This document shows positions 2,374-25,716 of a stretch of DNA of 29,188 nt, piece after piece. The stretch comes from a virus. Its lineage: Duplodnaviria; Caudoviricetes. Position 1 is the stretch's first letter, and every line of letters begins with the position of its first letter. Location: positions 1 to 29,188 of IMG/VR virus record IMGVR_UViG_3300017912_001074; one strand, given 5' to 3'. A program made the translations under genes and the position numbers. The notes under the pieces were generated by a model that was not told the DNA's origin, did no database searches, and was given only the letters and a program-made list of their open reading frames with translations.

Positions 2374-2826
2374 CTATGTTGCGCTTATTGCTGAACCAAT
2401 TTGCACTACTTTCCAAGTAGGATTACCTGCTGAATCATCTTCTCCTACTGCAACAGCAATACACTCTGTGCCTGCATCACCATTAGAACAAAATGCAACA
2501 TCGCCTTGTTCTATGTCAGTTCTTGCGTTCAGTTGTGCTACTGTTTGCGGATTTAGATTTAGTATGTGCTCTAGTAATACTTTGTCAGTGTTAGGATCCA
2601 ATGTTAGATTGTTTCCTGAACTTGATACTATTGTATCTGGCAATTGACTGTTGGCAATCTTTGAATTGCTGTCTAGTCCTGCAACACCACTTGCTGTGTT
2701 GCGTCCATCAATTACATTAGTAACTTCATCCAGTGCGGCCTTGAGATCAGCTCTTGCGGCCGCTGGTGAATCAGTGCCACTGTCTAAGTTAGTGGTTATT
2801 ATATTTGAGCTATTTCCCCAACCCAT
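2374..2826 (-). CDS. virion/tail fibre-associated protein
   Basis: End of tail module; GVAGLDSNSKIANSQLP fibre-type motif; N-terminal module shared with 2837-3442 and 21945-22472; contains DSAG. Confidence 0.6.
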   Translation of the reverse strand: MGWGNSSNIITTNLDSGTDSPAAARADLKAALDEVTNVIDGRNTASGVAGLDSNSKIANSQLPDTIVSSSGNNLTLDPNTDKVLLEHILNLNPQTVAQLNARTDIEQGDVAFCSNGDAGTECIAVAVGEDDSAGNPTWKVVQIGSAISAT

Positions 2827-2836
2827 CGTTTTCCTC

Positions 2837-3442
2837 CTATGCTATTTTATAGATCTGTATTTTCATTACAGGATCTGTGTTTGCTGGACCTTGTTCTTTG
2901 AATGTTAGAGTTGGACTTCCAGCTTTTGTCCAACTATAATTTATTGTAAATTCTTCTGTGCCTGTGCTTGTAGTAGATCCAACTATTGTAGCATGACTTT
3001 CATGGTCATTGATGTGTCTACGATTTGCAAATGAACTGCCGCCTTTTGCAAGACTAAATTCTAATTCATTGCTTAGGAATGTGCCACTAATAGGTGATAT
3101 GTTGTAGTAGATATCACACACAAATAGATAAGTGCCACTGTCTAACAAGAAACTACCACCTTGACCTGCACTGTCTGTGCTGGTAACAAATCCGTCTGGA
3201 TCTACTATGTTATCAAAATCAAGATTACCTGTTGCACTTGCTGTAATAATACCATTTGATCCTGGTGCGTTTGTTCTGTTTAGTGTTAGCAATGCACCTG
3301 CTGAACCTCCAAGTGTGCCAGCATTGTATTCATCTGCAATGGTATTGAAACTTGTTACAAGAGTATGCAGTTCTTCTCTTGCACTTGCAATTGAATCATC
3401 TGCTGAGTCAAATGCGTTTGCGTCTGGTTTAGTTACACTCAT
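2837..3442 (-). CDS. virion/tail fibre-associated protein
   Basis: Tail module position; N-terminal helical module then a beta-rich C-terminal domain; contains DSAG. Confidence 0.6.
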   Translation of the reverse strand: MSVTKPDANAFDSADDSIASAREELHTLVTSFNTIADEYNAGTLGGSAGALLTLNRTNAPGSNGIITASATGNLDFDNIVDPDGFVTSTDSAGQGGSFLLDSGTYLFVCDIYYNISPISGTFLSNELEFSLAKGGSSFANRRHINDHESHATIVGSTTSTGTEEFTINYSWTKAGSPTLTFKEQGPANTDPVMKIQIYKIA

Positions 3443-4248
3443 TATAATAATCCTATATCAACAGTTTGCACAACAATACTACCGTTGTCTGTGCTTTGTA
3501 GGTTTGGTAATCCTTCTACAATAGCATCTATTGTGCAGTCCATTGCTTTGCGTTTGCCAAATGCGTCTATATCATAAATGTATAGCGTAGGTGGCGCAGT
3601 TGTTTTGTCTACATACACCATAGGTGTTGCTGTAGTTGTTGTTGTTGCTACATATGTATCTGCTACATAATTTGCGGCAACATAAGGTGATGCACTAGGA
3701 TTGTGTGGTTGTGTAACTATGCTTGTTACACTTTTTATTCTTCCTATTGCATCAAGTTGTCTGACACCAACACTGCCTCCCAACGTGCTGGTGTCAAGAT
3801 CTGCGATGCTTGCCTTGATAGTGTCTTGTCTTAGTTCTATTACTACATCTTCAATTTCTGGTATTTCATCTAGAGCACTGTCTGGTGATAGTGCAATATC
3901 AAACTGCCAATATCTACCTTTCTTTGCTGTAAGGTCTAGTGTGCCTGGTGAAACTGTAAGTGTGCTTGGCGAATCTATTGCGCCATCACTTATGAGTGTG
4001 TCACCATAATTTACTGTAATTGTTGCAGGATAATTTGCTGTAACCAATATAATATAATGATACAATTGACTTACACCTGTGTCAATTACACCTGTTTGAT
4101 AAGTTAGGTCTTGTGCTACACCTTGCCAACTTGTTAAACTGTCCCAATCATTACCTGAACTACTAGCATCATAGTCTGCCCAAGTAACAGTGCCATTGCC
4201 TACTAGTGTTGATCTACTTTTGTCAAAATATCCGTTTACATTAGGCAT
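3442..4248 (-). CDS. minor tail protein
   Basis: Directly downstream of the tail tip gene; T/S/D-rich; YVAANYVADTYV repeat. Confidence 0.6.
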   Translation of the reverse strand: MPNVNGYFDKSRSTLVGNGTVTWADYDASSSGNDWDSLTSWQGVAQDLTYQTGVIDTGVSQLYHYIILVTANYPATITVNYGDTLISDGAIDSPSTLTVSPGTLDLTAKKGRYWQFDIALSPDSALDEIPEIEDVVIELRQDTIKASIADLDTSTLGGSVGVRQLDAIGRIKSVTSIVTQPHNPSASPYVAANYVADTYVATTTTTATPMVYVDKTTAPPTLYIYDIDAFGKRKAMDCTIDAIVEGLPNLQSTDNGSIVVQTVDIGLL

Positions 4249-4249
4249 G

Positions 4250-6553
4250 TTATGCTCCTAGATCCTGTTTACCACCAAATGATGTTGCACCACCATTTGC
4301 AGTGTTGTCAATTAGATAGTTTATAAATGCTTCTAAATTGCGTCCTGTTCTAGTTGTGCCATCAGGTATTTGATATGTATAATTTGAAAACTCTGAACTT
4401 ACAATGCTACCATCTGGAAACTCCATACCTAAACTGCTTTTACGCCATCTAACTTGACATGTAACACCAGGTTGTGTAGGTAATCCTATTTTTATAGTCA
4501 TAGGATGATGATTACCTGTGTTGAATATTGTATCTAATCTACTACCATCTATTGTGCCATGTCCATGATTAGGATCTCTCAATGGATATAATATTTCTCC
4601 ATCTTGTCCTATGTCAAAAAACAATTCTCCATCTAGATAGTAACGGAACACTAAAAAGTCTACACTTGTATCTATTGGACATATAATACTTGCTTTGTAT
4701 TGTCTTGCAAAACCTAAGTCTTCAAATTTTGCTACACCAAAGTTGCCATCATACACATCTCTATAAGGAGAACCACTAGGATAGTATAACAAAGGCGATG
4801 TGCCATCTGCTTGTGCATAACCTATATAGATACCTCTTAGACTGTATGTAGGTGTAACTGCTTGTGTGAATATTTCAAACTGCGTAACACTTGGATCTGG
4901 ATCATCCCATTCAGGCGGTAGTGGATTATCCTGTGTTGGATCATCTGGATCAATAGGAGGAAATATACCAATTGGTTTTGTTGGCACATTTCTTACATAT
5001 GGTCCAATATAAAATTCATCTGGTCTATACAAAGGTGGATCTATGTTAATTTGTTCACCTGTTGTAAATGGATAAAGCGTAGCATCATGTTCTGTTGCTT
5101 CTATGTCTACCAATCCATCTGGTCTTAGTTTTGATCCAACTACTCTAAATGTATCTAAATTAAGATCTAACACTGTATCTGTTACGCGAATAATATCACC
5201 AACTTCTACTTCTAGTAATTCTTGACTTGCTTGAAAACTAATTGTGCGTTGCTTTCTTGATTTGTCATAGATCATTTGTGCAAGGTCTCTTGCAATCGCT
5301 TTGTTTGTTAGTGTGTGAAAAGTAAATTCACCTGTTAGCAATTCATCATTGTCTATGGTTTGGTCACCATCTACATCATGCACAACCTGTTGGTTTGTAA
5401 AATCTTTGTCAGGATCAATATAGTTTACAATAACTTGATTGTATTTAGAACCTTTTCTTTCACCTGTAAGACTTATACCACCTATGATTTCTGATTTGTC
5501 TACATCATATGCAACATTTACACTAGTAGAACTTATGTCAGTAGCATTGCCACCATCTTCAACTTTTAGTTTGTATCTACCCTGTATAAAAGGCATTATA
5601 CCTCTACAACCTGCTGTAAGAGCTTTTACATTGTCTAAAACTTTTTGATCTGTGCCAACAACAGCATTTAAGGTTAGTGCTCTACCACTCTGTCTGTTTG
5701 AATACCTTACAGTTTGCTCATATTTGTTAGCGGCAATCTTGAAAGTGTCTGCATTGATTTCTGTTGTGCTTAGTCCAACACCATATCTTGAGTTTTCAAG
5801 ATAATCTAACAAACAACTTGCAGGATTTATTTGATAGCTCTTTGATCTTGAACTATAACTACCGCTTAGATTTAGGCCGCCCCCATGCGTTCTAACATCA
5901 TAAACTTTTTTACCATATACATCAAATTTTGCTTGAGGTATACCACCTGAGAAAGGATTGTTATCTGCATCCTCTTGTGTTTTAATTTCTTTCCATTCAT
6001 AACGGATAACAGCATAAGCAAGTCCTGGTAATTTTCTTTGTTTCTTACCCCAACTAGCACTTTCATTTGCTAGACTGCTTTGTCCTTGACCTTCTGTTCC
6101 ATTGAATACTTGTAATTTTATTCTGTCTTTGTATCTTGTAGAAGTTATTGTGTAGGTTTGACCATGTGTGTATTTGCCTCCACTAGGTTTAGGTAATTCA
6201 ACATCGTTGATTAGGATTCTACCAACACCTTCTATTTCACCTTCACATAGTGCATATACAACATACAAATATTTGTTAGATGTGCCATTTGTTTCTGTAA
6301 AGATGTTAGATCCACCTACTCTACGAAAACCATACACAACAGGCACTGCAACATTTGTGCCTTGTTTTGTAACCTGCACACCTTGTGCTTCTGAACCTGG
6401 ATCAGGAACTTGTGGTGTATCTAGTGCGCCAAAAGGATTGATTACAAATCCAATTACATCACCTACAAAGTTTACTACCGCTTTGACAACGCCAACGACG
6501 ACTTTTACAATGCCTTTGACAATATCTTTTACTGCATCAACTACGCCGCCCAT
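4250..6553 (-). CDS. tail tip / central fibre protein (lambda gpJ/GTA-like)
   Basis: VPVVYGFRRVGG, LCEGEIEG, NPASCLLDYL..RYG and LEVEVGDIIRVT motifs typical of tip proteins; synteny. Confidence 0.85.
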   Translation of the reverse strand: MGGVVDAVKDIVKGIVKVVVGVVKAVVNFVGDVIGFVINPFGALDTPQVPDPGSEAQGVQVTKQGTNVAVPVVYGFRRVGGSNIFTETNGTSNKYLYVVYALCEGEIEGVGRILINDVELPKPSGGKYTHGQTYTITSTRYKDRIKLQVFNGTEGQGQSSLANESASWGKKQRKLPGLAYAVIRYEWKEIKTQEDADNNPFSGGIPQAKFDVYGKKVYDVRTHGGGLNLSGSYSSRSKSYQINPASCLLDYLENSRYGVGLSTTEINADTFKIAANKYEQTVRYSNRQSGRALTLNAVVGTDQKVLDNVKALTAGCRGIMPFIQGRYKLKVEDGGNATDISSTSVNVAYDVDKSEIIGGISLTGERKGSKYNQVIVNYIDPDKDFTNQQVVHDVDGDQTIDNDELLTGEFTFHTLTNKAIARDLAQMIYDKSRKQRTISFQASQELLEVEVGDIIRVTDTVLDLNLDTFRVVGSKLRPDGLVDIEATEHDATLYPFTTGEQINIDPPLYRPDEFYIGPYVRNVPTKPIGIFPPIDPDDPTQDNPLPPEWDDPDPSVTQFEIFTQAVTPTYSLRGIYIGYAQADGTSPLLYYPSGSPYRDVYDGNFGVAKFEDLGFARQYKASIICPIDTSVDFLVFRYYLDGELFFDIGQDGEILYPLRDPNHGHGTIDGSRLDTIFNTGNHHPMTIKIGLPTQPGVTCQVRWRKSSLGMEFPDGSIVSSEFSNYTYQIPDGTTRTGRNLEAFINYLIDNTANGGATSFGGKQDLGA

Positions 6554-7035
6554 TCACTGCTCCCAATTTCTTTCACAAAATGATAACCTACTTCATTCAT
6601 CTGTCTTTTTTCAAAGTAGTTGCTACATGCTTCTACATAATCTTCATTTTGTTCATAATGTTTGTTGTATGCCATAACACTGGCCTGCATAAAGAAACAG
6701 TTGTTCTCTAAGAACCAAGTTTCTAGTGTGCTTACCATGTCATCTATCAACATTTTATTTCTTATTTCTGGCAATAGAAATAGAAACAATAATTCTCCAT
6801 ATCTTTTGCCATTCCATAATTTTTCTTTGATGGCACCCACAGCATAACCAACCAATCTACCACCTTGTTCAACCACTATAGGTTGCATATGTTCTGCAAT
6901 CATCATTTGTTTGATTTGTTTTTTCAAATAGGCACGGTCAATGTCATCATGTCCTGCTTGTCCACTGTCCTTGCAATGTGCAATGCTTAGATCAACTAAT
7001 TTTTCTAAATCATCTACTCTAGGTTCTCTAATCAT
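6541..7035 (-). CDS. GNAT-fold acetyltransferase-like protein
   Basis: MIREPRVDDL start, VVEQGGRLVGYAVG, LFLLPEIRNK motif A-like segment. Confidence 0.65.
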   Translation of the reverse strand: MIREPRVDDLEKLVDLSIAHCKDSGQAGHDDIDRAYLKKQIKQMMIAEHMQPIVVEQGGRLVGYAVGAIKEKLWNGKRYGELLFLFLLPEIRNKMLIDDMVSTLETWFLENNCFFMQASVMAYNKHYEQNEDYVEACSNYFEKRQMNEVGYHFVKEIGSSEWAA

Positions 7036-7613
7036 TACTTCTTACCCCATTTGATATCTAACAATGGTTCATGTGAATATTGCATACCAAAGTCTGTTGG
7101 ATGTTCTTTTTGAAAACTTCCTAAGTTAGTCCTACGACCAGTTTTCTTTTGGAAGTTTGTAAACTGTGAATTAACTTCTATTGTAAGTGTTGCAGTTTCT
7201 TTTGCATCTTCAATTCTATATCCTGCAATCTTACCTTTGAACAATAGTATTGCTTCATCACCTGCTGAATCACCAATTAGTGTGTTGTCAGTAGGATCAA
7301 TAAAAACTCTACGCACTTCTACATCTTGGTTTATTTGATTTGAATTTGCAAGTGTTTGCACAGTAGATAAATCTAAAGCACTAACAATAATATTGATTGA
7401 TGTAATCTGTAGATCAGCAGTTTCTGATGTTTCGCTTATACCTAAAAATTGTCCTTGTGCAGTGTAAGTGTCACCGTCATAGGTTACATCAAAAGGACCA
7501 TCTGTATAGTAAAGATCTGAAGCGCCATATACACTGATGTGTATAAGTGTAAAACTTGTTAAACTATCTCCAGCGAGATAACTGTTTTGGTTCGCACTTA
7601 GACCTCTGGTCAT
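7035..7613 (-). CDS. baseplate hub / minor tail protein (DUF2163-like)
   Basis: YYTDGPFDVTYDGDTYTAQGQFLG and LLFKGKI motifs; second gene after the tape measure; contains DSAG. Confidence 0.75.
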   Translation of the reverse strand: MTRGLSANQNSYLAGDSLTSFTLIHISVYGASDLYYTDGPFDVTYDGDTYTAQGQFLGISETSETADLQITSINIIVSALDLSTVQTLANSNQINQDVEVRRVFIDPTDNTLIGDSAGDEAILLFKGKIAGYRIEDAKETATLTIEVNSQFTNFQKKTGRRTNLGSFQKEHPTDFGMQYSHEPLLDIKWGKK

Positions 7614-8224
7614 TATAATACCTCTTCAACATCTATTTCATATGCTATTCTGTTGTCAGTTCTATAGTTGAACTCTTGTATGTCATTTGACAATATCATT
7701 CTAAAAGGCACATTTGTTGTTGTAATGCTTTCTGTGTTACTAACATTCTCAACAAGTGCTGGTGCAATGCTTACATCTACATTGCCACTGCCATTTGTTG
7801 TTGCATCTGCTGTAACCATATAAACTTTTGTATGATTTGTAAAGCGTATTACATCACCTGCTTTTAGAACAACAGTTGAATTTTTATTTGTGCTTATAGA
7901 TACTGCTGTAGCACTTGCACTTTGATTACCATTTACTGTTGCTGTCAATGTGCCAGGATTATCTGCTTGACTTGTGCTTACAGTAGGAATAACAATGTCA
8001 AATTCATTTAATGGACCTTGTGCTAGTGCAACAAATGCCTGCACTGGTCTAAATTCAGCAAGACTCATAACAGGAAATGCAAGTGTGCCACTCCAAAGTG
8101 TTGTAGAATTAGTTGCGCGGATTACTCTACCACTTGCTGTTTGTGTTTTTTTAGTAATTGTATTTTGTTTAAAGTTCGCCGCTGAAAAACCTGGTGAACT
8201 TGGAAATGTTCCTATGACTGCCAT
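7613..8224 (-). CDS. distal tail protein (Dit-like)
   Basis: Immediately after the tape measure; TASGRV...WSGTLAFP and LKAGDVIRFTNHTKVYMV. Confidence 0.7.
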   Translation of the reverse strand: MAVIGTFPSSPGFSAANFKQNTITKKTQTASGRVIRATNSTTLWSGTLAFPVMSLAEFRPVQAFVALAQGPLNEFDIVIPTVSTSQADNPGTLTATVNGNQSASATAVSISTNKNSTVVLKAGDVIRFTNHTKVYMVTADATTNGSGNVDVSIAPALVENVSNTESITTTNVPFRMILSNDIQEFNYRTDNRIAYEIDVEEVL

Positions 8225-11510: not shown

Positions 11511-11513
11511 AGA

Positions 11514-11927
11514 TTATACGCTCTCTATGTCCATAGCGCCTGTTCCTTGGAAAGAAACACTTGCTGTGATTAAGTCATCAAATGATGCTGTTCTTGAAAC
11601 AGATGTTACAAGCACTTGACCTGTAAATTTTTCACCTGTTGCAGTTGATGGATAAAACTCAACATAGAGTGCACCATCGTTGTCAGGACGGAAAGCATCG
11701 CCGTATGTTGCATCACCTGAGTGAGTGCTATCATAGACTACTTCCATAGTTCCTGTAAACTGGTGTAGACCAGCTTTGTATGTTCTTGCCGCGTCGCCCA
11801 TAACAGTGTCTTCAATCACATCTTTTGTGTGTTCAACTGTCCAGGAACGAACTTCAGCAACTTGTGCTTCACCAGCGGAATCGCTTCCAATGTATACAGC
11901 ACCGTTTTCACCTGTAAATGTCGCCAT
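11514..11927 (-). CDS. major tail (tube) protein
   Basis: MATFTGENGAV...AEVRSWT...EDTVMGD...SVSFQGTG; synteny; contains DSAG. Confidence 0.85.
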   Translation of the reverse strand: MATFTGENGAVYIGSDSAGEAQVAEVRSWTVEHTKDVIEDTVMGDAARTYKAGLHQFTGTMEVVYDSTHSGDATYGDAFRPDNDGALYVEFYPSTATGEKFTGQVLVTSVSRTASFDDLITASVSFQGTGAMDIESV

Positions 11928-11930
11928 AAT

Positions 11931-12658: not shown

Positions 12659-12664
12659 TGCCTA

Positions 12665-13120
12665 CTACCTTTTTAGGCGTAGGTAATGAGTAGGTTCTCT
12701 TTCAGCAGTATCTACTGTGCCTGAACTATCTGCATCATATTCCACGCCATCTCTAAGAACAAGATCTAATTCACGAGCATATTCTGCTCTGTAAAAGTCC
12801 ATTTTTCTTTCAAACAGATCTGTTTCTGGTTCAAATTTTGCTAACTTTGGATAAATGTGGAAACCTAACGCATGATAACACGCCGCACGAGTAAGTTGAC
12901 TTGCAGTAAACAAGTCTTCATCTGGTTCTTGTTGTCCAGAAGCAAGATATTTTAGATCATATAGGCCAGTTTGATATGTAGGCCACCATTGTATTCGTAG
13001 ATCTCTGAATACATCGTTTTGTGCTTTTGTTAGTTCGTCAGTGAAATCAGGTATACCAAAAGAAAGTATATCTGGTTCGTATTCTTCTACATCAGTAATC
13101 GTCGCTAATGTAATTGCCAT
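12665..13120 (-). CDS. head-tail adaptor / head completion protein
   Basis: First gene after the capsid gene; C-terminal GVEYDADSSGTVD; AAGGAGG RBS. Confidence 0.7.
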   Translation of the reverse strand: MAITLATITDVEEYEPDILSFGIPDFTDELTKAQNDVFRDLRIQWWPTYQTGLYDLKYLASGQQEPDEDLFTASQLTRAACYHALGFHIYPKLAKFEPETDLFERKMDFYRAEYARELDLVLRDGVEYDADSSGTVDTAEREPTHYLRLKR

Positions 13121-13319: not shown

Positions 13320-14165
13320 TTATAACTGAGCGTCTCCAATAATACCAACGCCATAAGCGTCAAATAGTTCACCTACTCCGTAGGCCATAGAACCTACATA
13401 TTCAGTTGCTCTTAAAGAAGCATCTCTTTGCTCTTCAATACGCATGTTACGCTTAACCATGTAACCAATAGCATCTGAAGACATTGCCGCACCAACAAAT
13501 GCACCAGCTGAGTCGCCAGTTACAACAGTTGATTCAAAAATGTCAATACCAGCTATTCTACCAACGAAACCGTCTTGTAGCGCAATGTTACCTACATCAC
13601 TTAGGTTGTGTGACATAGTTGCACCTGCGTTAGTTAACTGTTTCTTGATTTGGAATGCTTGGTATGGATGTAGCACAGCTACATATGGTCCAGGAGCATT
13701 GTTGTTTCTTAGTGTTGCCGCCGCTTTGAATAAGTCTTCAATAGTGATTTCTGCCGCACCTGATCCAACAGTGTTTGAGAAACCGCTGAATAATGCCGCT
13801 AAATCTTCGTCAACTTTCTTCGCCATGCCTTCACCAATCTGACGACCAATTGCCGCCGCAACATCTTCTGCCGCGCCTTCTCTTGCGATGTCAGTTAGTG
13901 TAACATTCACGCCAACTTCTGCCGCTGTTAGTGTAGCAACATCTGTTGAGAATGAAGTTGGACTTGAAAGGTCTGTGCCTTCTGCAACACCTGCCGCCGC
14001 GATAGTTCCGTATTTTGGAATCTGCGCAACAAGACCTGGTGTGTTTGTCATGTCGTAATTTCTTACCAGCGGACGAATGACTGTCTGCTCACTTAGTGTG
14101 AACAAGGCCGCTTGAACTATATTTGCATATAGATCATTTAAGGTAGTTGTAGTTGAAACTGCCAT
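13320..14165 (-). CDS. major capsid protein
   Basis: 281 aa downstream of the scaffold; QIPKY, MAKKVDEDL, AVLHPYQ, GRIAGIDIFES and IEEQRDASLRATE motifs of HK97-fold capsids; contains DSAG. Confidence 0.9.
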   Translation of the reverse strand: MAVSTTTTLNDLYANIVQAALFTLSEQTVIRPLVRNYDMTNTPGLVAQIPKYGTIAAAGVAEGTDLSSPTSFSTDVATLTAAEVGVNVTLTDIAREGAAEDVAAAIGRQIGEGMAKKVDEDLAALFSGFSNTVGSGAAEITIEDLFKAAATLRNNNAPGPYVAVLHPYQAFQIKKQLTNAGATMSHNLSDVGNIALQDGFVGRIAGIDIFESTVVTGDSAGAFVGAAMSSDAIGYMVKRNMRIEEQRDASLRATEYVGSMAYGVGELFDAYGVGIIGDAQL

Positions 14166-14958: not shown

Positions 14959-14977
14959 CAAATGTATAAAAAATCCT

Positions 14978-15166
14978 TTATTTACGACGTCTTCCGCCGC
15001 GCATAGGTTTTCTTCCACCACGCATTGATTTCTTTTTGTCGTCTTTTTTCTTCTTTCTTCCACCACGCATTGCCATGATAGTCCCTCCTAATCTTAGTTT
15101 AAACTTGCGTCTACTAGGACGCTCTCCTACTACACCACCTAGAGTTGAACTTGTAGATACTGTCAT
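14978..15166 (-). CDS. small Arg/Lys-rich (protamine-like) protein
   Basis: ATGA overlap start at 15166; internal ATG at 15076 with TAGGAGGG RBS gives MAMRGGRKKKKDDKKKSMRGGRKPMRGGRRRK. Confidence 0.6.
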   Translation of the reverse strand: MTVSTSSTLGGVVGERPSRRKFKLRLGGTIMAMRGGRKKKKDDKKKSMRGGRKPMRGGRRRK

Positions 15167-15450
15167 TTTTTCAATATCCTTTTGGCCCAACTTAGTCCAG
15201 CATTACCACCCCAACCTAAGTATGCTTGGGTGCCTGGTGTATTCTTGCCTGGTTTGTAGTATGCCTTTGCCCTACTAAGATAACTGAATGTGCGTTCTAC
15301 TGTTTGTAGACTAACATTCTTACCTTTGGCGAATTGATTAGCTCTGGCCAATCCAACTGCTGTCATGCCTTTAGCACTTTTGGGTGCCCTCTCCCTTAGT
15401 GCTAGTGCTTTCTTGGCATTTCGTTGCATTTGTCTAGTAGGTCTAGGCAT
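15163..15450 (-). CDS. basic hypothetical protein, head-module associated
   Basis: GMTAVGLARANQ...SYLSR...AYLGWGGNAGLSWA pattern resembles a recurrent phage head-region protein of unknown function. Confidence 0.7.
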   Translation of the reverse strand: MPRPTRQMQRNAKKALALRERAPKSAKGMTAVGLARANQFAKGKNVSLQTVERTFSYLSRAKAYYKPGKNTPGTQAYLGWGGNAGLSWAKRILKK

Positions 15451-15472
15451 ATTTCCCCCACGCTCTGCTGTT

Positions 15473-15661
15473 CTACATCACCATGTTGGCAACAACTGCA
15501 ATCAGTTGTGTAAACACAACCAATGCAACAGCGCCTAGTATTTTTTTCATGGTGCTTAAATCTTTTTCCATATGACGTAAATGATTATCTAAAACTAGAT
15601 CTAATTTTTGTTCTAGCAGTGAAAGTCTTTTATCTAAATCTTCATACTGTTTCATCTTCAA
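15473..15661 (-). CDS. small coiled-coil protein with C-terminal transmembrane helix (possibly holin-like)
   Basis: LDNHLRHMEKD then hydrophobic ILGAVALVVFTQLIAVV; GGAGG RBS. Confidence 0.6.
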   Translation of the reverse strand: MKMKQYEDLDKRLSLLEQKLDLVLDNHLRHMEKDLSTMKKILGAVALVVFTQLIAVVANMVM

Positions 15662-15893
15662 AATCCTCCACTAATGTATAATCATTTATTGAATGCATTC
15701 TTTCAAGAATCTCTTTTCTTCTTGCTCTGCACAAATGGAATAGCGTTAAAAGGTTTGCTCTAGCTCTACGGCCTGCTCTTTTACTATTCTTTTGTTCAAA
15801 CTTATGGATGTTTGTATTGTAGTCAGCGAGAACTTCTCTGATCTCTTTTTCAAGACCAAAAATAAATTCTCTATCTGGCACATACTTACCCAT
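15642..15893 (-). CDS. Hc1/histone H1-like basic protein
   Basis: KFEQKNSKRAGRRARANL...RARRKEI resembles the K(G)NKAAGTRARK core of Hc1-like proteins; start reassigned to 15893 (MGKYV), overlapping the portal stop. Confidence 0.55.
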   Translation of the reverse strand: MGKYVPDREFIFGLEKEIREVLADYNTNIHKFEQKNSKRAGRRARANLLTLFHLCRARRKEILERMHSINDYTLVEDFEDETV

Positions 15894-17403
15894 TGTCCTG
15901 TTCACCGTTTGTAAACAAAGCACCTAGCTCTGGATGCAAGTTTTTGATTTCTTCATCTGTGTAACCTGCTTCTACCATTTCTCTAAGATGTGTTACTAGA
16001 TCATCTGCACTTGTAACAGGTGCATGTTCTACTAAGTCCTTAGCTGGTGCTGGCATTTCTTCAATTGATTCTTCAGTGATAGTTTCGTATATTCTGTTGT
16101 CAATTTCTTTATTGATTCTACTATCACCAATGTTTGCTTCTTTTGCTAGTTTTAACATAGCAATATCATTTGCTTTGTCTTGTATTGAGAAGCTACGTGG
16201 ATATTCAATGAATCCATCCCATCTGTTACCTTGATAGATAGACCATAGTCTCCATAGTTGTTCTTCTGCATGTTCTAAATTCATTGCAAAGTCAGCAAGT
16301 CTAGCGTTTAGCATTTGGAATTCTGTTTGTAAACCAATGCCTGACAATCTACGACTTTCTATACTTCTTATACCACCTAGGTTGGCCATTCTATCAATTG
16401 AATCTACTTTTTTAGTAATGCTGTCTAGCACTGCTTCAATTGATGCACCATCTGGTTGTAGCAAATAAGGTTTTAGTCCTGGATCCATACCTTGTGGCAT
16501 TTGCACAATAGATCCTGCGCCTGCACTTGCTTCAGTGTCTGCTGTTTTTACAAGACTTGGGTGGTTAGTAAGTCTAATAATTTGTTCTATTTCTGAATTG
16601 AATTCGTATATTTCTTTTTGAACATCTGCAATATCACCTACTGCACTTATACCTACACCACGCACACTGCTTCTTTGTGCATATACACAAATAGCAGGAA
16701 CACTACCTAAGTCATTTGGAAGTGTTTCAATTAGTTCACCTCTTTTGTCGTCACCGTCAATAAGGTAAATGTTTACTTCAGTAGGTGTGTATTCTCTAAT
16801 ATACTGTTTGTTTTCAATTATTTCTTCTTTAACTTTAAGATAGGTAAGTCTATATAAACCATTTGTTTCTCTTGTGTATTCCCAATCTAAAACATTATCA
16901 GGAGTAAACAAACTAACATAAGGTCTAATACCTTGATCTAATTCTTCTGCTCTTGTGCCTACTTGAACATTGCTTTTGTCTACAATTATCCAACAGTTAC
17001 CGTATACCATTGAGTATGCACTAACATCACGCATGAAAGCAGTGAAACTTCTACCATCAAGATCTGCATCTGCAAGGAAAGGTGCAAGTCCTGGATTAGT
17101 TTCTATGCTTCCAAAATCTCTTTTGATGTCTTTGCGGAACAAGAAACTGTTGTAGATGCCTACAACACTTTTAACATGATTATCAAGTCCTACTTGGCGT
17201 AGTCTTTTTTCATAATCATCTCTTGATTCGTAATAGTATGGTTCTAAGTATCTACCTGCGTAGTAATCAAAACCTCCATTGTAGCTGTCCCCTAAAAAGG
17301 TCCAACGATTTACATAATATTTGTATGCATCATGCGCTTCAGTGATATAATCTACTGCATACCTACTGTCGCCTTTGATGACTCTGTCTCTAATAACGGG
17401 CAT
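15886..17403 (-). CDS. portal protein
   Basis: 505 aa immediately after terL; ADADLDGRS, YGNCWIIVD, RPYVSLFTPDNVLDW and SGIGLQTEF motifs. Confidence 0.9.
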   Translation of the reverse strand: MPVIRDRVIKGDSRYAVDYITEAHDAYKYYVNRWTFLGDSYNGGFDYYAGRYLEPYYYESRDDYEKRLRQVGLDNHVKSVVGIYNSFLFRKDIKRDFGSIETNPGLAPFLADADLDGRSFTAFMRDVSAYSMVYGNCWIIVDKSNVQVGTRAEELDQGIRPYVSLFTPDNVLDWEYTRETNGLYRLTYLKVKEEIIENKQYIREYTPTEVNIYLIDGDDKRGELIETLPNDLGSVPAICVYAQRSSVRGVGISAVGDIADVQKEIYEFNSEIEQIIRLTNHPSLVKTADTEASAGAGSIVQMPQGMDPGLKPYLLQPDGASIEAVLDSITKKVDSIDRMANLGGIRSIESRRLSGIGLQTEFQMLNARLADFAMNLEHAEEQLWRLWSIYQGNRWDGFIEYPRSFSIQDKANDIAMLKLAKEANIGDSRINKEIDNRIYETITEESIEEMPAPAKDLVEHAPVTSADDLVTHLREMVEAGYTDEEIKNLHPELGALFTNGEQDNG

Positions 17404-19367: not shown

Positions 19368-19368
19368 C

Positions 19369-19686: not shown

Positions 19687-20015
19687 TATAATTGCCTCTC
19701 CACTACTTTAATTCTAATATTCCTACTGTCTTTTTTGTTGTTGTCAGTAGTAATACGATATTCTACGTTGTATATGTTTCCTGCTGTGCCACCACTTAAA
19801 TTAGCAGTCGCGACATAGTCAGTGTTACCTGTGCTGTCCAGTGCTAGTGGAGATGCGTCACCTGAAATGGTTTCTACATTAACACTTAAGACACTTATAA
19901 CTTCTCCTGTTGGCATCCAATTTGTCCAATCAAGAGAATAGTCTAACACAGCGAAGGGGTCTTTTTCAATATAAACGCCTACGCGGTCAGTCTTAAAACC
20001 TGTCAGTGTGGCCAT
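19686..20015 (-). CDS. virion-associated protein (KDPxxxLDYxxDW type)
   Basis: KDPFAVLDYSLDWTNW...LSGGTAGNIY motif; follows the fibre-like gene. Confidence 0.65.
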   Translation of the reverse strand: MATLTGFKTDRVGVYIEKDPFAVLDYSLDWTNWMPTGEVISVLSVNVETISGDASPLALDSTGNTDYVATANLSGGTAGNIYNVEYRITTDNNKKDSRNIRIKVVERQL

Positions 20016-21442
20016 TAACCTTCTCTCCTATCTAGGAAACCGTCATTTTCAACCAATGCTGTCTTTTGAACCTTAAGATTTCTTGTTTCAGATGGCACTG
20101 TATAACCACGAGTTTCCTGTTCTATTGTATTTACACGATTCTCAGTTTTTAGGGTGTAATTCCGTGTTTCTTCGCCTATTTCTTGCGTTCTTGACTCAAT
20201 TGGAACTGTGTATACCCTAAATGGATCAATGTTATAGATTGTTAATGCTGTAAGTTGTGTTACAAATGCATTCAATCTAAGATCTGCTACGCCTAAAAGT
20301 GTGCCTGCTAGAGTTGTTATTGAGAATGAGCTGTCTAAGCTCAAGTCGTCTGGGCCTTTGAATTGATTTGCGTCTACTGTAAGTGTGCCTGAGCTTGCCT
20401 TTAGTATAGTTGGACCAAATATTGCACTTTCATTTGCTGTAAATCCAAATACACCTGTTAGTGTTTCAGTGATGCCTCTTATTCTAAAGTCATCACTTGT
20501 AATTGTTGTTGTTGCTACTGCATCTAGTGTTGCATCACCACCATTTAATTTTCTAGGTGTTGTTGTAACAGTAAATGTAGAACTTAGTGTAGCATTGCCA
20601 TCTACTTGTATAATAGCACTTGCATCTAGTGTTGCTACTGCATCTAATGAAGGAGCAACATCAAAATCTGCTGTTCCTACTACACTAACACTTGCTACTG
20701 CGTCTAGTGTAGCATTGGCATCTAAAACAAAATTGCCTGTAACTGCTACACTTGCAAAATTGTTTACAGTTAGATCTGCGCCAGCTGTAAAGTTCTCATC
20801 AGTTGATAATGAGAAACTAGAACTTAGTGTTGCTTCACCTTCTGCTGTTACAAATGCACTGACATCAAATAATGGACCCCAATATTCACTGCGTGGATTT
20901 GCCCATGTGTCACCTTCTTGCCATTGAACTTCATCACCTGGTGTAATTAGTTCTGCTTCACCACTTAGTGTAGCGACTGCATCTGAACTTAGACTTGCAA
21001 CAACATTTACTGTGGCGCTTTCCTCAGAAATTATGTTTGCAACGATTGTGCTAGATAACACACCATCTATTGTAGCACTAGCATTTCTAGTTGCTACAAG
21101 ATCACTTGAAAGTGTAGCACTTGCACTTGCACTGCTTACACCACCATGTGTTATTACTGCACTTTGACTGGTTGTAAATGCACTTGAAATAGTGCTGTCA
21201 CTGCTTCTTGTTCTATCAGCATCTACTGTGACTGTTCCGCTACTGGCCTGTAGGACTGTGCCTTGTTTTATATTTGTAGCATCTGCCGTGACGGTTGCGT
21301 TGACGCTAAGAACAGCATCTGCTGATACTATTGCGCCTACATAATTCGCATCTACATAAAGATCTTGGTCTGTGCCAACAAAGTTAGCATCAACATAACC
21401 AGATTCTAAGTAGTCGTTATTTGCAATTACATAATCCGCCAT
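20015..21442 (-). CDS. low-complexity repetitive fibre-like virion protein
   Basis: A/S/T/V/D-rich with recurring 'ATL(D/S)(A/S)' units; N-terminal YVDAN(F/Y)VG repeats; C-terminal ETRxYT repeats. Confidence 0.65.
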   Translation of the reverse strand: MADYVIANNDYLESGYVDANFVGTDQDLYVDANYVGAIVSADAVLSVNATVTADATNIKQGTVLQASSGTVTVDADRTRSSDSTISSAFTTSQSAVITHGGVSSASASATLSSDLVATRNASATIDGVLSSTIVANIISEESATVNVVASLSSDAVATLSGEAELITPGDEVQWQEGDTWANPRSEYWGPLFDVSAFVTAEGEATLSSSFSLSTDENFTAGADLTVNNFASVAVTGNFVLDANATLDAVASVSVVGTADFDVAPSLDAVATLDASAIIQVDGNATLSSTFTVTTTPRKLNGGDATLDAVATTTITSDDFRIRGITETLTGVFGFTANESAIFGPTILKASSGTLTVDANQFKGPDDLSLDSSFSITTLAGTLLGVADLRLNAFVTQLTALTIYNIDPFRVYTVPIESRTQEIGEETRNYTLKTENRVNTIEQETRGYTVPSETRNLKVQKTALVENDGFLDRREG

Positions 21443-21465
21443 GGGTAGGTCCCCTTAGATGCGGA

Positions 21466-21888
21466 TTATGCTAATGTTACTGTTAAATTGCCACTAGTGA
21501 TTTGGAATGTGTCACCAGACTCAATAGTCTTTGAAGTAGATAGAGCACCGTAGAACAGAACATTGCCTGATGTTAGTGCATCCATTACTGCTACATGGGT
21601 AATTGTTCCCCAGTTATTGTCTGTAGCTGTTGGAAATGTAACATTGGCATCTGTTGATACTGAACCACCACTAATAGTTCCAAATGAAGCACTTTGGCGA
21701 GCGTATGCTCCACCACTGCATTCATCTGTGATAGTTCCTGCTTCTAAATTTTCGCTTGTTAGACCAGCTGAATCATCAGCGTTGAACAGAGCGACATATA
21801 CTGTGCTTGGTGCACTGGTTGTCTGCGAGTTTGCTTTCAACCAAAAATCAAGTGTGCGATCTTCTGTGTAATTGCTTGCGGCACTCAT
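21466..21888 (-). CDS. virion structural protein
   Basis: MSAASNY...YVALF...GGAYARQ...FPTAT..WGTITHVAVMDALTSGNVLFYG, a recurrent phage fibre-associated family; contains DSAG. Confidence 0.75.
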   Translation of the reverse strand: MSAASNYTEDRTLDFWLKANSQTTSAPSTVYVALFNADDSAGLTSENLEAGTITDECSGGAYARQSASFGTISGGSVSTDANVTFPTATDNNWGTITHVAVMDALTSGNVLFYGALSTSKTIESGDTFQITSGNLTVTLA

Positions 21889-21934
21889 TTTTGTCCTCCT
21901 ATATAGGTTTTTTAATTGTTAGTTGCAACATTGT

Positions 21935-21940
21935 TATTTA
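21935..21940 (-). promoter_or_regulatory. TAAATA late-type promoter motif
   Basis: AATAAATA in the intergenic gap upstream of 21888. Confidence 0.45.
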
Positions 21941-21944
21941 TTGT

Positions 21945-22472
21945 TTAGGCAAATTTATGGACTAAAAGTTGTGCGTTTGAGTCATTTCTAGTGGGCGTGC
22001 TACTGCTGTTGACCCTATAACTAATATTTGTTGCACTGCTTAGTTCAAAACTTACTGCATCACGATATAAAGAAGTCCCAGTTGTGCCAATTTCAAATAC
22101 TAGATGTTGTCCTAACTGTGAATCAGCATCTTCATCATGAATAAGGGCAGTTGTTCCTTCACCAACTATCTTAGGTAGCGGTGTCAAAATGTATTTGCCT
22201 GCTGGTAAACTAAAAGTGTAGGTGCTGTTAGTGATTAAACTGTCTAAATCTGCACTTACTGTGACTGCTTTTCTATAGATGTTACCACTTACATTTTGTT
22301 CTGTGTTAGTTGCAGTAATAACGGCAAATTTTTGTGTTACACTGTCAGTTAAATGATCAATAATCTCATTTACGTTGTCAATGTTTTGTTTTATGTCAGG
22401 TCTTGCGTTGGAGATTAAATCTGTGCCAGCGTCTACGTTGGCAGTTGATGCTTTAGTTGAAGGTATTCCCAT
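21945..22472 (-). CDS. virion fibre-associated protein
   Basis: N-terminus VDAGTDLISNARPDIKQNIDNVNEIID is paralogous to the genes at 2374 and 2837. Confidence 0.6.
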   Translation of the reverse strand: MGIPSTKASTANVDAGTDLISNARPDIKQNIDNVNEIIDHLTDSVTQKFAVITATNTEQNVSGNIYRKAVTVSADLDSLITNSTYTFSLPAGKYILTPLPKIVGEGTTALIHDEDADSQLGQHLVFEIGTTGTSLYRDAVSFELSSATNISYRVNSSSTPTRNDSNAQLLVHKFA

Positions 22473-22482
22473 ATTTTATCTC

Positions 22483-24477
22483 CTAGTTATCGTCAAGTAT
22501 TCTTGTGGCGCCATCTGTGCCATTTAGATGAAACAATGCTATTGTATTTGCGTCATTTTTGAATGCAGTAGTTGGTGCACTGAATCCTGCTGTGTATCTT
22601 GCTGTGTTACTGACTCTTATTTCATCAATATGTCCACGCCAAGATTTTGTTCCGCCTCTATCAACACCAAATGTGTATTCAGTATTGCTAGACCAGTCTC
22701 CACTATCACTGTATGCGCTACCTTCTTGACTGCCATCTACATATAGTTTGACATCGCCAGCACTGTCTCTTACAAGAGCAACATGATACCATGTGTTGTT
22801 ACTGATTGCTGTGGTTCCTGTTATTCTAAGTGTTTCACCTGTGCCTGTTGCGTATTCAAATCTGTTGTTTGTATCATCATAATACAAACATTGTCCACTG
22901 TTACCATTGAACACATACTGATTTCCTGTGATATCAGTATCTTTCCTTACAAAAGCTTCTACTGTAAATTCGCCTGTGCCAATTGTGTCAAAAGGACCTT
23001 CATCTCTAGCAATAAATCCGTAGTATTGAGCACTTTGATACCAACTTGATCCACCAAATTTAGACTGTGCAGTATCAATCTCACCACCAAATACTTCACC
23101 TATGTTAACAGGCACTCTCTTACCATTGTCATCAAAGAATTCATTTGAATTATTTTCACCATCCATATGCACTAACAACAGTGTGTTACTATCATTAACA
23201 AATGCACTAGTGTCAGGTGTAAAATTACTTGTGTATCTTGCGGTGTTTGATACGCGGAATTCATCTATGTGTCCATCATTCGTATTTGATGTGTTCACAA
23301 TACCGCCTATTGCACCATACCAATCTGAACTGTAGTCTGTTGAATCTGTAGAAGTTTTAACACTTGTGCCATCTATATACAGTGTTGCTGAAGTTCCTGA
23401 TCTTACCAGTGCAAAATGATACCATGTGTTTGCTGACACAGTAAGACCTGTTGTTTCTTGCCATGTAGCATTTGCAATGTATCTCCATTGTCCTGTAGAT
23501 GTTCTCAATTGAAATGCTATACCACCTGTGTATGTTCCACTTAGTCCTGTAGATGAATTTGGTGTTAATTGGAAAATACCATTGAATGAACTTAGATTTG
23601 CAATTCTAACTCTACCTTCAATAGTATAATCTCCTGTGCCAATTGCAGGTATTTTGTCAATTTTGAGATAGTCGCCTGAACTTGCACCTCTAGTATCTAA
23701 ACTTGTGCCGCCAAATACATTTTGTGAAGTATCTATATCTGCACCACTTATTGCTGTTAGTCCAATAGGCAATCTTTCACCATTGTCGTCTATGAATACC
23801 GTTGAAGCATCAGTTCCGTCCATGTGCATCAACATCAATGTATTTGAGTTGTCATTTGTAAAAGGTGTTGTTGATGGTGTAAATCCTGCTGTGTATCTTG
23901 CTGTTGACGAAATACGAACTTCATCTATATTACCAATAAATCCGTCACTTCCTGAACTGTTTAGTGCTCCAAGAACGCTGTCAATCTGTTGCACACTTGG
24001 TGAACCTGTTCCTGAACCGTCTTCTGTGCCATCAATATAAATTTTGAAACTACTGCCATTTCTTACCCAAGCAATATGTTGCCAAGTGCTTGCAGAAAGT
24101 GTGCCTGTTGAAGTAAAACTTGGACCGCCATTTATAAACAGTCCTACTTGTCCTGAAGCATTCATATACATTGTAGTTCTACCTGAAGTGCCTGCTGAAT
24201 ATTGTGTAAAGAAATAGTCTATAGCACCTATTGAAGTAGGATATACCCACATCTCAACAGTCCAATCATCAGTTGCTGGTAGTATTGGTGTATTCAATAG
24301 AACAGCATCACCAGTGCCATCAAATAAACCGCTTGAACCATTAAACTTTGATTGTGCTGTGTCTATCTGTGCGTTGCCTATAGCACTTCCATCAATCGCA
24401 CTTCTTTGTTCTGCTACTACTTCATCTGCGGCAAATCTCTTTGCTAAAAAATTTAATCTACTTGCTCCTAATGGCAT
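22483..24477 (-). CDS. triple LamG/concanavalin A-like lectin domain protein
   Basis: Three ~215 aa repeats, each with IDTxQxxFxGxS, (D/E)(W/Y/F)T(V/I)E, W(Q/Y)H(I/F/V)AxVR, IDExRxSxTARY and a DDN end. Confidence 0.88.
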   Translation of the reverse strand: MPLGASRLNFLAKRFAADEVVAEQRSAIDGSAIGNAQIDTAQSKFNGSSGLFDGTGDAVLLNTPILPATDDWTVEMWVYPTSIGAIDYFFTQYSAGTSGRTTMYMNASGQVGLFINGGPSFTSTGTLSASTWQHIAWVRNGSSFKIYIDGTEDGSGTGSPSVQQIDSVLGALNSSGSDGFIGNIDEVRISSTARYTAGFTPSTTPFTNDNSNTLMLMHMDGTDASTVFIDDNGERLPIGLTAISGADIDTSQNVFGGTSLDTRGASSGDYLKIDKIPAIGTGDYTIEGRVRIANLSSFNGIFQLTPNSSTGLSGTYTGGIAFQLRTSTGQWRYIANATWQETTGLTVSANTWYHFALVRSGTSATLYIDGTSVKTSTDSTDYSSDWYGAIGGIVNTSNTNDGHIDEFRVSNTARYTSNFTPDTSAFVNDSNTLLLVHMDGENNSNEFFDDNGKRVPVNIGEVFGGEIDTAQSKFGGSSWYQSAQYYGFIARDEGPFDTIGTGEFTVEAFVRKDTDITGNQYVFNGNSGQCLYYDDTNNRFEYATGTGETLRITGTTAISNNTWYHVALVRDSAGDVKLYVDGSQEGSAYSDSGDWSSNTEYTFGVDRGGTKSWRGHIDEIRVSNTARYTAGFSAPTTAFKNDANTIALFHLNGTDGATRILDDN

Positions 24478-24478
24478 A

Positions 24479-24793
24479 CTATACTACTCCCTTGTTCCAT
24501 TCATCTGTGGCAAGTAAGGTTTCAAAAGCATCTCTATCCATTTCTGTGCCTTTGCTTGCAATAGACGCCACACTGCTAGGCAGTGTTTCTAAATAACTTA
24601 AGATCATTTGTGAATTGTCAACACTGTAATGTGCATAATCTGGACCACTAGTTAGCATGCCTGGTTGCTCTACTACCATAATAGGTTCACCTGCACTATT
24701 GTATCCTGATTTAGTAATTGCACGGTCTTTAAAATCTACACTTGCACTATCTGCGCTGTCAATTACAATCCATTTTCTTTGATCACTAATCAT
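24479..24793 (-). CDS. hypothetical protein
   Basis: 104 aa; AGGAG RBS; lies between fibre genes. Confidence 0.65.
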   Translation of the reverse strand: MISDQRKWIVIDSADSASVDFKDRAITKSGYNSAGEPIMVVEQPGMLTSGPDYAHYSVDNSQMILSYLETLPSSVASIASKGTEMDRDAFETLLATDEWNKGVV

Positions 24794-24801
24794 AGTTGCT
24801 C

Positions 24802-25716
24802 CTATGAGAAGTTAGTTGATAAACTAGCGTAGTATACACCACCAAAATATAGTATGCTCATAATATCTACTGAACTACCAGTTGTTGAAAGTGTTTGCTC
24901 ACCACCTGCAAAAATCATTGCACTGTCTGATGCAAGTCCTTCTGAGAAAGTATGATTACCTGTAGTATCTTGTTCTAGTATAAGTGTAACACTTTGTCCA
25001 TCTGCTTCATTTTGAAAACCTGTAAATGTTACGCTTTGGTCTAGTGTAATTTTTTGTATTGGTCCATCTGCTGGATCAATGTTTATACTTCCTGCACTGT
25101 CTGTTGTTAGTGTGTGAACTGTTTCTTTGTAATCACCAAATGTTTTGTTTGTAAGTGTTTGTGTTGCAATTTCACTTACTAGAGTTGAGTCACTGCCTTT
25201 AGGCATAAGCATTGTATTTGTAACTGCTTCACTGTGTGGTTGTGATCTAATCTTTTGTCCATGAGTGTTTGATTCACAGTTAAGTTGGATTGTTCCTGCG
25301 TTTGTGTTGCCTCTAATTTCAACATGACCTGTTCCGTTTGGTGCTAGGTCTAAGTTTGCATTTGAAACTGTAACAATGTCATTGCCGTTTGTATCTAAAT
25401 CCCCACCAAGTTGTGGAGTTGTGTCATCTACAACATCTGCAAGTCCTGCTGAACCACTTGCTGTGATTGTGATATTGGCGTTACCTGCACTATCTTCTGT
25501 TACACTAGTAGTTACATTGGTTCCGCCTATGATGTTTAGCACACCATTTGATTGTGCTTCACCTACAGTCACTGATCCTGTGTCAGCATCTACCTGTAGT
25601 GGTAAAATTTTGTTTGTAAGTAGATCAATAAAGTTATTGTCTAGTTCCGCATATGTAAGACTGCTACCTTTTGTGGTTGCGCCTGTTTGCGATTCTTGTC
25701 TTAGGGTTATTGTCAT
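24802..25716 (-). CDS. tail/head fibre-like virion protein
   Basis: KGSSLTYAELDNNF N-terminus, DTTPQLGGDLDTNG, TQTLTNKT, C-terminal TLILEQD...LST....VDIMS; contains DSAG twice. Confidence 0.75.
   Translation of the reverse strand: MTITLRQESQTGATTKGSSLTYAELDNNFIDLLTNKILPLQVDADTGSVTVGEAQSNGVLNIIGGTNVTTSVTEDSAGNANITITASGSAGLADVVDDTTPQLGGDLDTNGNDIVTVSNANLDLAPNGTGHVEIRGNTNAGTIQLNCESNTHGQKIRSQPHSEAVTNTMLMPKGSDSTLVSEIATQTLTNKTFGDYKETVHTLTTDSAGSINIDPADGPIQKITLDQSVTFTGFQNEADGQSVTLILEQDTTGNHTFSEGLASDSAMIFAGGEQTLSTTGSSVDIMSILYFGGVYYASLSTNFS

Follow-up and report, generated by a model that had tools for sequence, protein, structure and literature searches.

Tailed phages are usually thought to be unglycosylated. 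Freeman et al. (2023) reportedly described virion glycosylation in mycobacteriophages. According to the available sections of papers that cite that work, the phages encode the glycosyltransferases themselves, and these act on subunits of capsid and tail tube (PMC12619734, PMC11256854); the glycans are placed at the C-terminal ends of both proteins (PMC12619734), and no acceptor word is described there. In bacteria, the Maf enzymes perform cytoplasmic O-glycosylation of Ser/Thr with ulosonic acids activated by cytidine monophosphate (CMP), including Kdo (3-deoxy-D-manno-octulosonate). They put Kdo or N-acetylneuraminic acid (Neu5Ac) directly on Ser/Thr in E. coli, and three residues are essential for this activity, namely Asp, Ser and either Asp or Asn (bioRxiv 10.1101/2020.06.03.131540, available sections). 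Maf recognises flagellin via extra domains (bioRxiv 10.1101/2023.12.03.569772, likewise in part). The words consensus, motif and sequon are absent from the main text of both preprints. O-glycosylation in Bacteroidota uses the motif D(S/T)(A/I/L/V/M/T), which DSA fits (PMC5420450, excerpt). Here we describe the tetrapeptide Asp-Ser-Ala-Gly (DSAG) in particle proteins of the IMG/VR virus record IMGVR_UViG_3300017912_001074, together with two transferase-like genes that accompany it. The whole stretch of 29,188 nucleotides was analysed and is called the window. No phage virion sequon, DSAG included, was found in the literature searched, which left most subscription journals outside.

A six-frame search of the window found exactly 9 DSAG, all on the minus strand and in frame in 8 of the 43 called open reading frames (ORFs; 9,331 aa in total). 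The first-pass annotation had reported these nine sites with varied codons and had estimated that well under 1 was expected. All nine were confirmed in frame with that codon variety, and the expectation computed from per-protein composition was 0.31. It had also proposed a 4-mer count against shuffled controls. Over 1,000 shuffles within proteins the DSAG count never exceeded 3, and the enrichment therefore holds. The commonest 4-mer of any kind reached 7 at most, so that the excess survives the post hoc choice of the word. Among 3-mers, DSA (15 vs. 3.9 expected) and SAG (17 vs. 4.4) were increased, and the DS dipeptide was barely raised (63 vs. 48). The near variants DSSG, DSTG, NSAG, DSAL and DSAM, which had been noticed as well, are each present once. 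The sites, two proteins without DSAG in the window and the share of non-redundant homologues with DSAG are:

2425..2436, minus strand: DSAG in a 150-aa tail-tip-region protein (ORF 2374-2826); 8/11 homologues
3164..3175, minus strand: DSAG in a 201-aa tail-tip-region protein (ORF 2837-3442); 4/6 homologues
3442..4248, minus strand: 268-aa tail-tip-region protein of a DSAG-rich family, with DSAL instead of DSAG
4250..6553, minus strand: central tail fibre (PHROG 31/5616), without DSAG in the window
7260..7271, minus strand: DSAG in the baseplate hub (ORF 7035-7613); 15/37 homologues
11871..11882, minus strand: DSAG in the tail tube (ORF 11514-11927), residues 16-19; 22/49 homologues
13503..13514, minus strand: DSAG in the major capsid protein (ORF 13320-14165), HK97 A-domain turn; 31/54 homologues
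21763..21774, minus strand: DSAG in the GP4 gp80-like fibre protein (ORF 21466-21888); 23/43 homologues
22756..22767, minus strand: DSAG in the LamG-domain protein (ORF 22483-24477); 3/40 homologues
25090..25101, minus strand: second DSAG copy in a 304-aa putative virion protein (ORF 24802-25716)
25483..25494, minus strand: first DSAG copy in the same 304-aa protein

The family of the 268-aa protein has DSAG in 20 of 23 homologues (32 copies in 7 site clusters), that of the 304-aa protein in 28 of 46 (48 copies), and relatives of the central tail fibre carry it near residue 539 (14/35 homologues). The LamG family showed only 3 DSAG vs. 1.59 expected, and the DSAG of the LamG protein may be an ordinary turn. 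The eight carriers had been called structural and unrelated to each other. Pfam/PHROG matches back the first point for hub, tail tube, capsid, LamG and gp80-like protein; the 304-aa protein has a weak virion-protein match, and the products of 2374-2826 and 2837-3442 have no match and are structural by position only. The second point did not stand for the products of 2374-2826, 2837-3442 and 24802-25716, which share one BLAST linkage cluster.

The window, which is the entire record, is a nearly complete marine siphovirus of ~30 kb related to phage DSL-LC06. It carries a siphovirus-type gene set, all on one strand, in the structural order terminase, portal, scaffold, HK97-type capsid, tail tube, tape measure, distal tail, hub and central fibre. 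Pfam/PHROG also recognised the LamG protein and a GP4-like gp77/gp80 fibre module. The left end truncates a methyltransferase-like ORF. Since terminally repeated relatives measure 30.5-32.5 kb, little of the genome is missing. The best-matching public runs were seawater or marine metagenomes. DSL-LC06 (OR003941) is the nearest named phage (capsid 75% identical), followed by HTVC111P-type pelagiphages (43-45%). It has homologues for 32 of the 43 window proteins, and a tree of the large terminase subunit (TerL) nests both.

For the counts across the clade we pooled 302 of 332 loci, excluding 30 non-clade loci, and reduced them to non-redundant homologues of window proteins; 22 metagenome contigs were counted over their 10-21 kb loci only. 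In an outer-particle set of 514 proteins (14 capsid, tail-tube, tip and fibre families), 277 DSAG were present vs. 6.72 expected, and in the other 614 proteins 0 vs. 4.35. The outer set was drawn after the first counts had been seen and homologues are non-independent, so that these ratios are only descriptive. DSAG was absent from tape measure (0/65), portal (0/59), scaffold (0/61) and TerL (0/49), and also from adaptors, chaperone and GNAT. The restriction to certain particle proteins, which had been suggested for the window, is seen in the clade counts too, and in both clade and window DSAG is some 30- to 40-fold above chance. Twelve of the 14 relatives of at least 25 kb carry 8-16 DSAG (G049 has 3, G029 has 1), and the pelagiphages HTVC026P, HTVC111P and HTVC202P have none. 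In the TerL tree the DSAG-rich genomes form the crown, and the basal G044, G068, G057 and G049 have 0, 0, 0 and 3 copies, the first three genomes being fragments. Searching IMG/VR twice for tandem DSAG codons without regard to lineage yielded 53 loci, of which 21 belong to the clade and some share a contig. DSAG is a trait of this clade.

DSAG sites fall into 23 clusters in the 9 well-aligned families and into roughly 53 over all 14 families, for which the alignments are rougher. Outside the capsid, 134 of 139 DSAG adjoin an indel column, vs. 13-63% of other Ser. The second gp80 site of relatives is a clear insertion with flanks that differ between lineages, and distant tail tubes lack the entire DSAG-bearing insertion. 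The alignment of homologues proposed in the first-pass annotation therefore placed DSAG in lineage-specific variable stretches. A protein can hold up to four copies, some of them eight residues or fewer apart (L014). The capsid DSAG aligns with the A-domain turn of Gp6 in PDB 9m66. This turn and the tail-tube loop presumably face outward, as in HK97-fold and tail-tube structures; a literature search on the orientation of the capsid loop found no paper on it.

Both Ser codon families encode the motif in the clade (AGY 149, TCN 128), 67 different 12-mers occur, and in 15 genomes 146 of 151 six-frame copies lie inside called ORFs. This ruled out a DNA repeat or nucleic-acid motif and agrees with the earlier view that selection acts on the peptide. 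The 165 near variants at homologous sites keep Ser in 133 cases, Gly in 129, Asp in 106 and Ala in 64. In the clade DSTG (46 vs. 9.0), DSSG (34 vs. 7.5) and DSGG (16 vs. 7.7) are tolerated; DTAG (6 vs. 8.5), ESAG, NSAG and DAAG are near background. The proposed parallel to the Bacteroidota motif was not supported: in the window DTAG is missing, DTA stands at 5 vs. 4.6, and DSV, DSI, DSL, DST and DSM are at background.

Most DSAG contexts look like strand-turn-strand, and the LamG copy has ordinary alternatives. DSAG might therefore be a favoured Asx/Gly beta-turn that spread in a structural proteome rich in Ser, Ala, Gly and Asp. We regard this as very unlikely, because 277 of all 1,185 D-x-x-G words of the outer proteins are DSAG, and common turn words stay at background level (DANG 8 vs. 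4.7, DSNG 4 vs. 5.0, DSDG 0 vs. 5.7). In addition, homologous proteins of the three pelagiphages have no DSAG, and the motif arrives as insertions with differing flanks, which a turn does not need. Two known motifs were also rejected. In an EF-hand-like calcium loop the fifth position would be Ala, which cannot serve as a ligand. For a GDSAG esterase nucleophile elbow, the proteins that hold DSAG have virion folds and Gly precedes DSAG in only 53 of 277 cases. In our view DSAG is very probably a selected recognition motif of some kind.

A separate observation concerns DSSG. In the head-tail adaptor (12665-13120, minus strand) it lies within an acidic stretch, which we take to resemble an EF-hand calcium loop. 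In the non-outer set DSSG amounts to 44 vs. 3.7, probably from this conserved adaptor site.

Both transferase-like genes lie on the strand of the structural genes, directly upstream of them, and lack curated family matches; NCBIfam gave no match for either protein. With their neighbours they are:

25751..26194, minus strand: PHROG 10325 protein, in most cases encoded between the first structural gene and the Maf-like gene; 21/26 contigs
26160..26723, minus strand: stand-alone protein of ~180 aa with predicted Maf/Cst fold, candidate Ser O-ulosonyl transferase and proposed writer
27628..28530, minus strand: 300-aa GT-B protein with predicted KpsC/WbbB fold, candidate elongating transferase
439..1065, minus strand: class I S-adenosylmethionine methyltransferase (Pfam), variable cargo; 7/26 contigs
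3..293, minus strand: methyltransferase-like ORF truncated at the end of the contig; its cluster is of FkbM type

The AlphaFold model of the 26160-26723 protein (predicted local distance difference test, pLDDT, 88.6; 14 sequences) was compared with known structures. Foldseek placed the sialyltransferases Cst-I/II first, followed by other sialyltransferases. On realignment of the Foldseek top 1,000, Maf 5mu5 was the best match (Z 11.7, root mean square deviation (rmsd) 3.3, 159 aligned), of which the model covers only residues 269-506 of 632. Pfam PF01973 did not match the protein (E 0.01), nor 30 sampled of 148 new homologues (E 0.1), and PDB sequence searches with the profiles A1, A2 and A3 (A3 with 30 of 38 rows) found nothing relevant. 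The nearest named Atlas cluster was PF01973 MptE-like (34% of members, score 0.92). Among the best 150 of 742 homologues, most are stand-alone proteins of 170-220 aa without Maf's extra flagellin-binding domains. In the clade copies D52 is present in 26/26, S101 in 15/26 and D123 in 23/26, with Asn in 3/26; they were paired with CbMaf D272, S334 and D357 from their order and spacing alone (22 vs. 23 residues). No other non-structural gene of the clade is as constant as the Maf-like gene; linkage assigned it in 25 of 26 contigs, and in the 26th a divergent copy was recognised by eye.

The same fold is shared by HPPK (Z 9.5) and thiamin pyrophosphokinases (Z up to 8.8). The Ser could thus carry a non-sugar group, phosphoryl-type or acyl, if the protein acted like these pyrophosphokinase relatives, and the MptE-like Atlas cluster speaks for this as well. 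We judge it most improbable, since Maf and sialyltransferases align over 149-168 residues vs. 117-133 and the gene neighbourhood is glycan-related.

The model of the 27628-28530 protein (pLDDT 92.2, 35 sequences) gave KpsC as the best match, a modest one, in both Foldseek (E 3.6e-4, template modelling score (TM) 0.39) and VIA (Z 8.4, rmsd 5.2, 204 aligned). KpsC and WbbB were the only near-full-length fold matches, and in the Atlas Capsule_synth was assigned to 17% of one cluster. The gene is present in 21 of 26 clade contigs. Neither KpsS nor capsule export genes were recognised in the window. An independent contig of 11,964 bases matches the window co-linearly, as four pieces from the portal region as far as the KpsC-fold gene, so that assembly error does not account for the linkage of structural genes with enzyme genes.

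Relatives carry variable cargo that includes a GT9 heptosyltransferase (by Pfam), FkbM and Methyltransf_24 methyltransferases and an asparagine-synthase-like amidotransferase (50 selected proteins). The methyltransferase at 439..1065 of the window possibly decorates a glycan. GNAT or methyltransferase as the writer was rejected, as neither is constant among DSAG-rich genomes. DNA glycosylation by these enzymes was set aside too, since Pfam/PHROG recognised no base hydroxymethylase in the window, which is weak evidence. The GNAT acetyltransferase of the window (6541-7035, minus strand) is located between hub and central fibre, where an acyltransferase is annotated in HTVC111P-type phages; this tail-operon GNAT is absent from G008 and G034.

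We lean slightly towards the view that DSAG is a sequon for Ser O-glycosylation that is primed by the Maf-like enzyme, with the KpsC-fold protein extending the glycan and variable genes decorating it; we infer every chemical step of this scheme. In the host cytoplasm, the Maf-like protein would use a CMP-activated ulosonic acid of the host to modify Ser directly, in the way that Maf modifies flagellin. For a Gram-negative host, the simplest assumption is that CMP-Kdo is the donor. Since the protein is without Maf's extra domains, it would pick its sites by sequence. The KpsC-fold protein would then extend the first sugar, and the heptosyltransferase, methyltransferases and amidotransferase of the variable cargo may cap or decorate the glycan. 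With DSAG sites facing outward, hundreds of subunits of capsid and tail tube would bear an acidic glycan that varies between strains and acts as a shield or a surface mimic, and internal proteins would carry no tag.

A strict four-residue loop word also suits binding, and conserved small proteins without assigned function do exist (PHROG 10325, 21/26). An unmodified docking motif for a decoration or chaperone protein of the phage, or for a host or environmental ligand, is nevertheless distinctly unlikely in our view: up to four copies per protein at such short distances suit a small adduct better, and the constant non-structural genes are transferase-like.

A search with the Maf-like profile found unrelated phage contigs, among them the T4-like G078, which was reached via the enzyme and not via the motif. 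In G078 DSA amounted to 62 vs. 10.4 in 19 proteins, the capsid included, DSD to 37 vs. 10.2 and DSAG to 8 vs. 0.8; in G077 DSA and DSD together reached 18 vs. 6.8. The fragments G080, G082, G086 and G088, which have the Maf-like gene, and likewise G084 showed no DS excess, but they are without homologues of the DS-bearing structural proteins of G078. In the G078 capsid clade the four longest of 14 contigs carry the Maf-like gene, the other ten being 10-33% complete, and 37 loci gave DSD 168 vs. 58.7 and DSA 116 vs. 56.9, with at least a threefold excess in 9/37. The complete C48C1, on which the literature search found no paper, also carries the gene, which is of the window type in both G078 and C48C1. 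Over the 100 of 156 kb counted in C48C1, DS[AD] was raised in structural stretches (14 vs. 6.6 and 22 vs. 8.7; sum 36 vs. 15.3) and not in non-structural ones (4 vs. 5.6 and 3 vs. 4.4; sum 7 vs. 10.0). The motif of the T4-like phages is looser, an excess of Asp-Ser-Ala/Asp(/Asn) in particle proteins (G078 L387-L390, L384, L380, L369 and C48C1). Melnitz had DS[AD] at 11 vs. 9.6, and no match to the Maf-like enzyme profile was found in HTVC026P, HTVC111P and Melnitz.

The scheme in its widest form states that a Maf-like viral enzyme in minimal, stand-alone form recognises an exact four-residue sequon and attaches Kdo or a sialic-acid-like sugar directly to Ser, that a second enzyme builds a chain resembling lipopolysaccharide (LPS) or capsule, and that the same subfamily works in T4-like phages with the looser Asp-Ser-Ala/Asp code. 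We put this forward tentatively and rate its chances as somewhat short of even.

DSAG could also be a modification site with another writer, namely the KpsC-fold protein, that of PHROG 10325 or a cytoplasmic host enzyme; the Maf-like protein would then work on the glycan at a later step, or its target would be the LPS or capsule of the host. The rank of Cst-I/II, which have glycan acceptors, in Foldseek fits this, and so do G028, which retains 11 DSAG after a swap of its Maf-like gene, and the complete G049, which has no KpsC-fold gene and only 3 DSAG. Against it, credible KpsC-fold matches with an open frame were found in 0/5 T4-like DS-motif contigs, which do carry the Maf-like gene; no DSAG accompanies the KpsC-fold gene of G068 and G057; and the tail-operon GNAT is absent in G008 and G034 despite 11-12 DSAG. 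On balance another writer seems unlikely.

Several results weigh against priming by the Maf-like enzyme. The capsid DSAG is next to common indels in 0/32 cases, although rarer length changes do occur there, and several exposed-looking families never have DSAG (for instance the 475-aa filament protein, 0/64, and the gp77 adaptor, 0/47). The margin of Maf in the structural comparison is small (SteA Z 10.7, Cst-II 9.8, HPPK 9.5); because of this and of the Foldseek order, the acceptor could be a sugar, or the reaction may not be glycosyl transfer. The Ser that corresponds by spacing to Maf's essential Ser is kept in only 15/26 clade copies. The motifs of KpsC, a QXXXD nucleophile and HP (PMC10148158, in the part available), occur in 0/35 and 0/35 of the equivalent windows of the KpsC-fold proteins, and KP in 29/35. 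HTVC008M has an intact distant Maf-like homologue and no motif excess (DS[AD] 9 vs. 12.5). Its copy groups with those of G044, G068 and G028 (support 0.93); in this divergent subfamily G044, G068 and HTVC008M are without motif excess and G028 keeps 11 DSAG, so that a recent swap or another writer is needed. In G029 a window-type Maf-like gene and the KpsC-fold gene go with only a single DSAG over 11 outer proteins. In the fragment G057, which carries both enzyme genes too, 5 outer proteins hold 0 DSAG; relaxed D-S-[ATSG]-G was found 4 times there vs. 0.26. Finally, both the motif and the enzyme are traits of the clade, so that about two independent lineages underlie their co-occurrence. The co-occurrence with glycosyltransferase-like genes, as first proposed, stood in so far as the models do fold like glycosyltransferases, and the link between motif and enzyme has exceptions in both directions.

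Some observations on single genomes are added here. The sister genomes G028 (25830-26378) and G027 (26856-27410) have different Maf-like subfamilies at the same position, and the gene was therefore recently exchanged. The basal complete genome G049, which is without the KpsC-fold gene, has zinc-dehydrogenase and Gfo/Idh/MocA oxidoreductase genes at 22336-24856 that possibly serve sugar synthesis. In the cultured pelagiphage HTVC008M the Maf-like gene (752-1309, L488) lies beside a carbamoyltransferase-like ORF, and this phage is a tractable place to study the enzyme family. Its region 35001-80000 (L487) shows an excess of SFE (21 vs. 2.5, 7 proteins), FEG (19 vs. 2.4) and ITL (33 vs. 7.1), probably from a repeated fibre module.

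Regarding the remaining gene content, neither polymerase, helicase, integrase nor lysin was recognised in the window by Pfam or PHROGs; complete relatives (G017, G046, G049) are only 30-32 kb. The constant non-structural genes of the family are the two transferase-like genes, PHROG 10325, PHROG 16521 and an HNH protein, and the family may depend on host or helper replication. Between portal and scaffold (14978-15923, minus strand) the window has small Lys/Arg-rich ORFs, one with a histone H1-like Hc1 match, which are possible DNA-condensing proteins. A GTDB scan for the host returned three loci (two short contigs of metagenome-assembled genomes and one 27-residue match) and was uninformative.

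DSAG offers an exact site, a candidate enzyme of ~180 residues and a proposed donor that laboratory E. coli already makes. If the scheme is true, it provides a defined virion glycosylation sequon and an LPS- or capsule-like mimic of the bacterial surface on head, tail and fibres of a 30 kb phage. It would explain why small aquatic phages keep glycosyltransferases and suggest that many uncultured virions wear acidic glycan coats. The four residues would then be a portable tag for site-directed cytoplasmic attachment of Kdo or sialic-acid-like sugars to any protein.

Among named phages DSL-LC06 is most similar to the window clade. It shares the structural gene set, the ~30 kb genome and the gene order, has KpsC-like and sialyltransferase-like genes annotated, and carries 8 DSAG. 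'Nanhuiviridae' was proposed as its family and a Pseudomonadota host predicted; in the portion available, the paper mentions a possible glycosylation system only via an acetyltransferase and does not name a peptide motif (PMC10611076).

Compared with the known enzymes, the model of the 26160-26723 protein is closest in fold to the Maf flagellin glycosyltransferases (PF01973, 5mu5). Maf 5mu5 has 632 aa and the phage protein ~180 aa without Pfam match. DSAG is a strict word over many folds, whereas Maf, in the sources available, is flagellin-specific through added domains. The model of the 27628-28530 protein resembles the beta-Kdo transferases KpsC (GT107) and WbbB (GT99), and QXXXD and HP are absent in 35/35. 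O-glycosylation in Bacteroidota acts on exported proteins; phage particle proteins are not exported. Unlike the Bacteroidota motif, the phage sites show no excess of the Thr form or of other third residues, and Gly at position 4 is nearly fixed. Like mycobacteriophages, the window encodes glycosyltransferase-like genes, judged by predicted fold only, with GT9 recognised by Pfam in relatives. Unlike in mycobacteriophages, the DSAG sites are internal, are spread over 14 protein families and follow one exact word, and the predicted folds are those of CMP-ulosonate transferases. Virion glycosylation by phage enzymes is already known from mycobacteriophages; the window clade adds an exact word and a small candidate enzyme.

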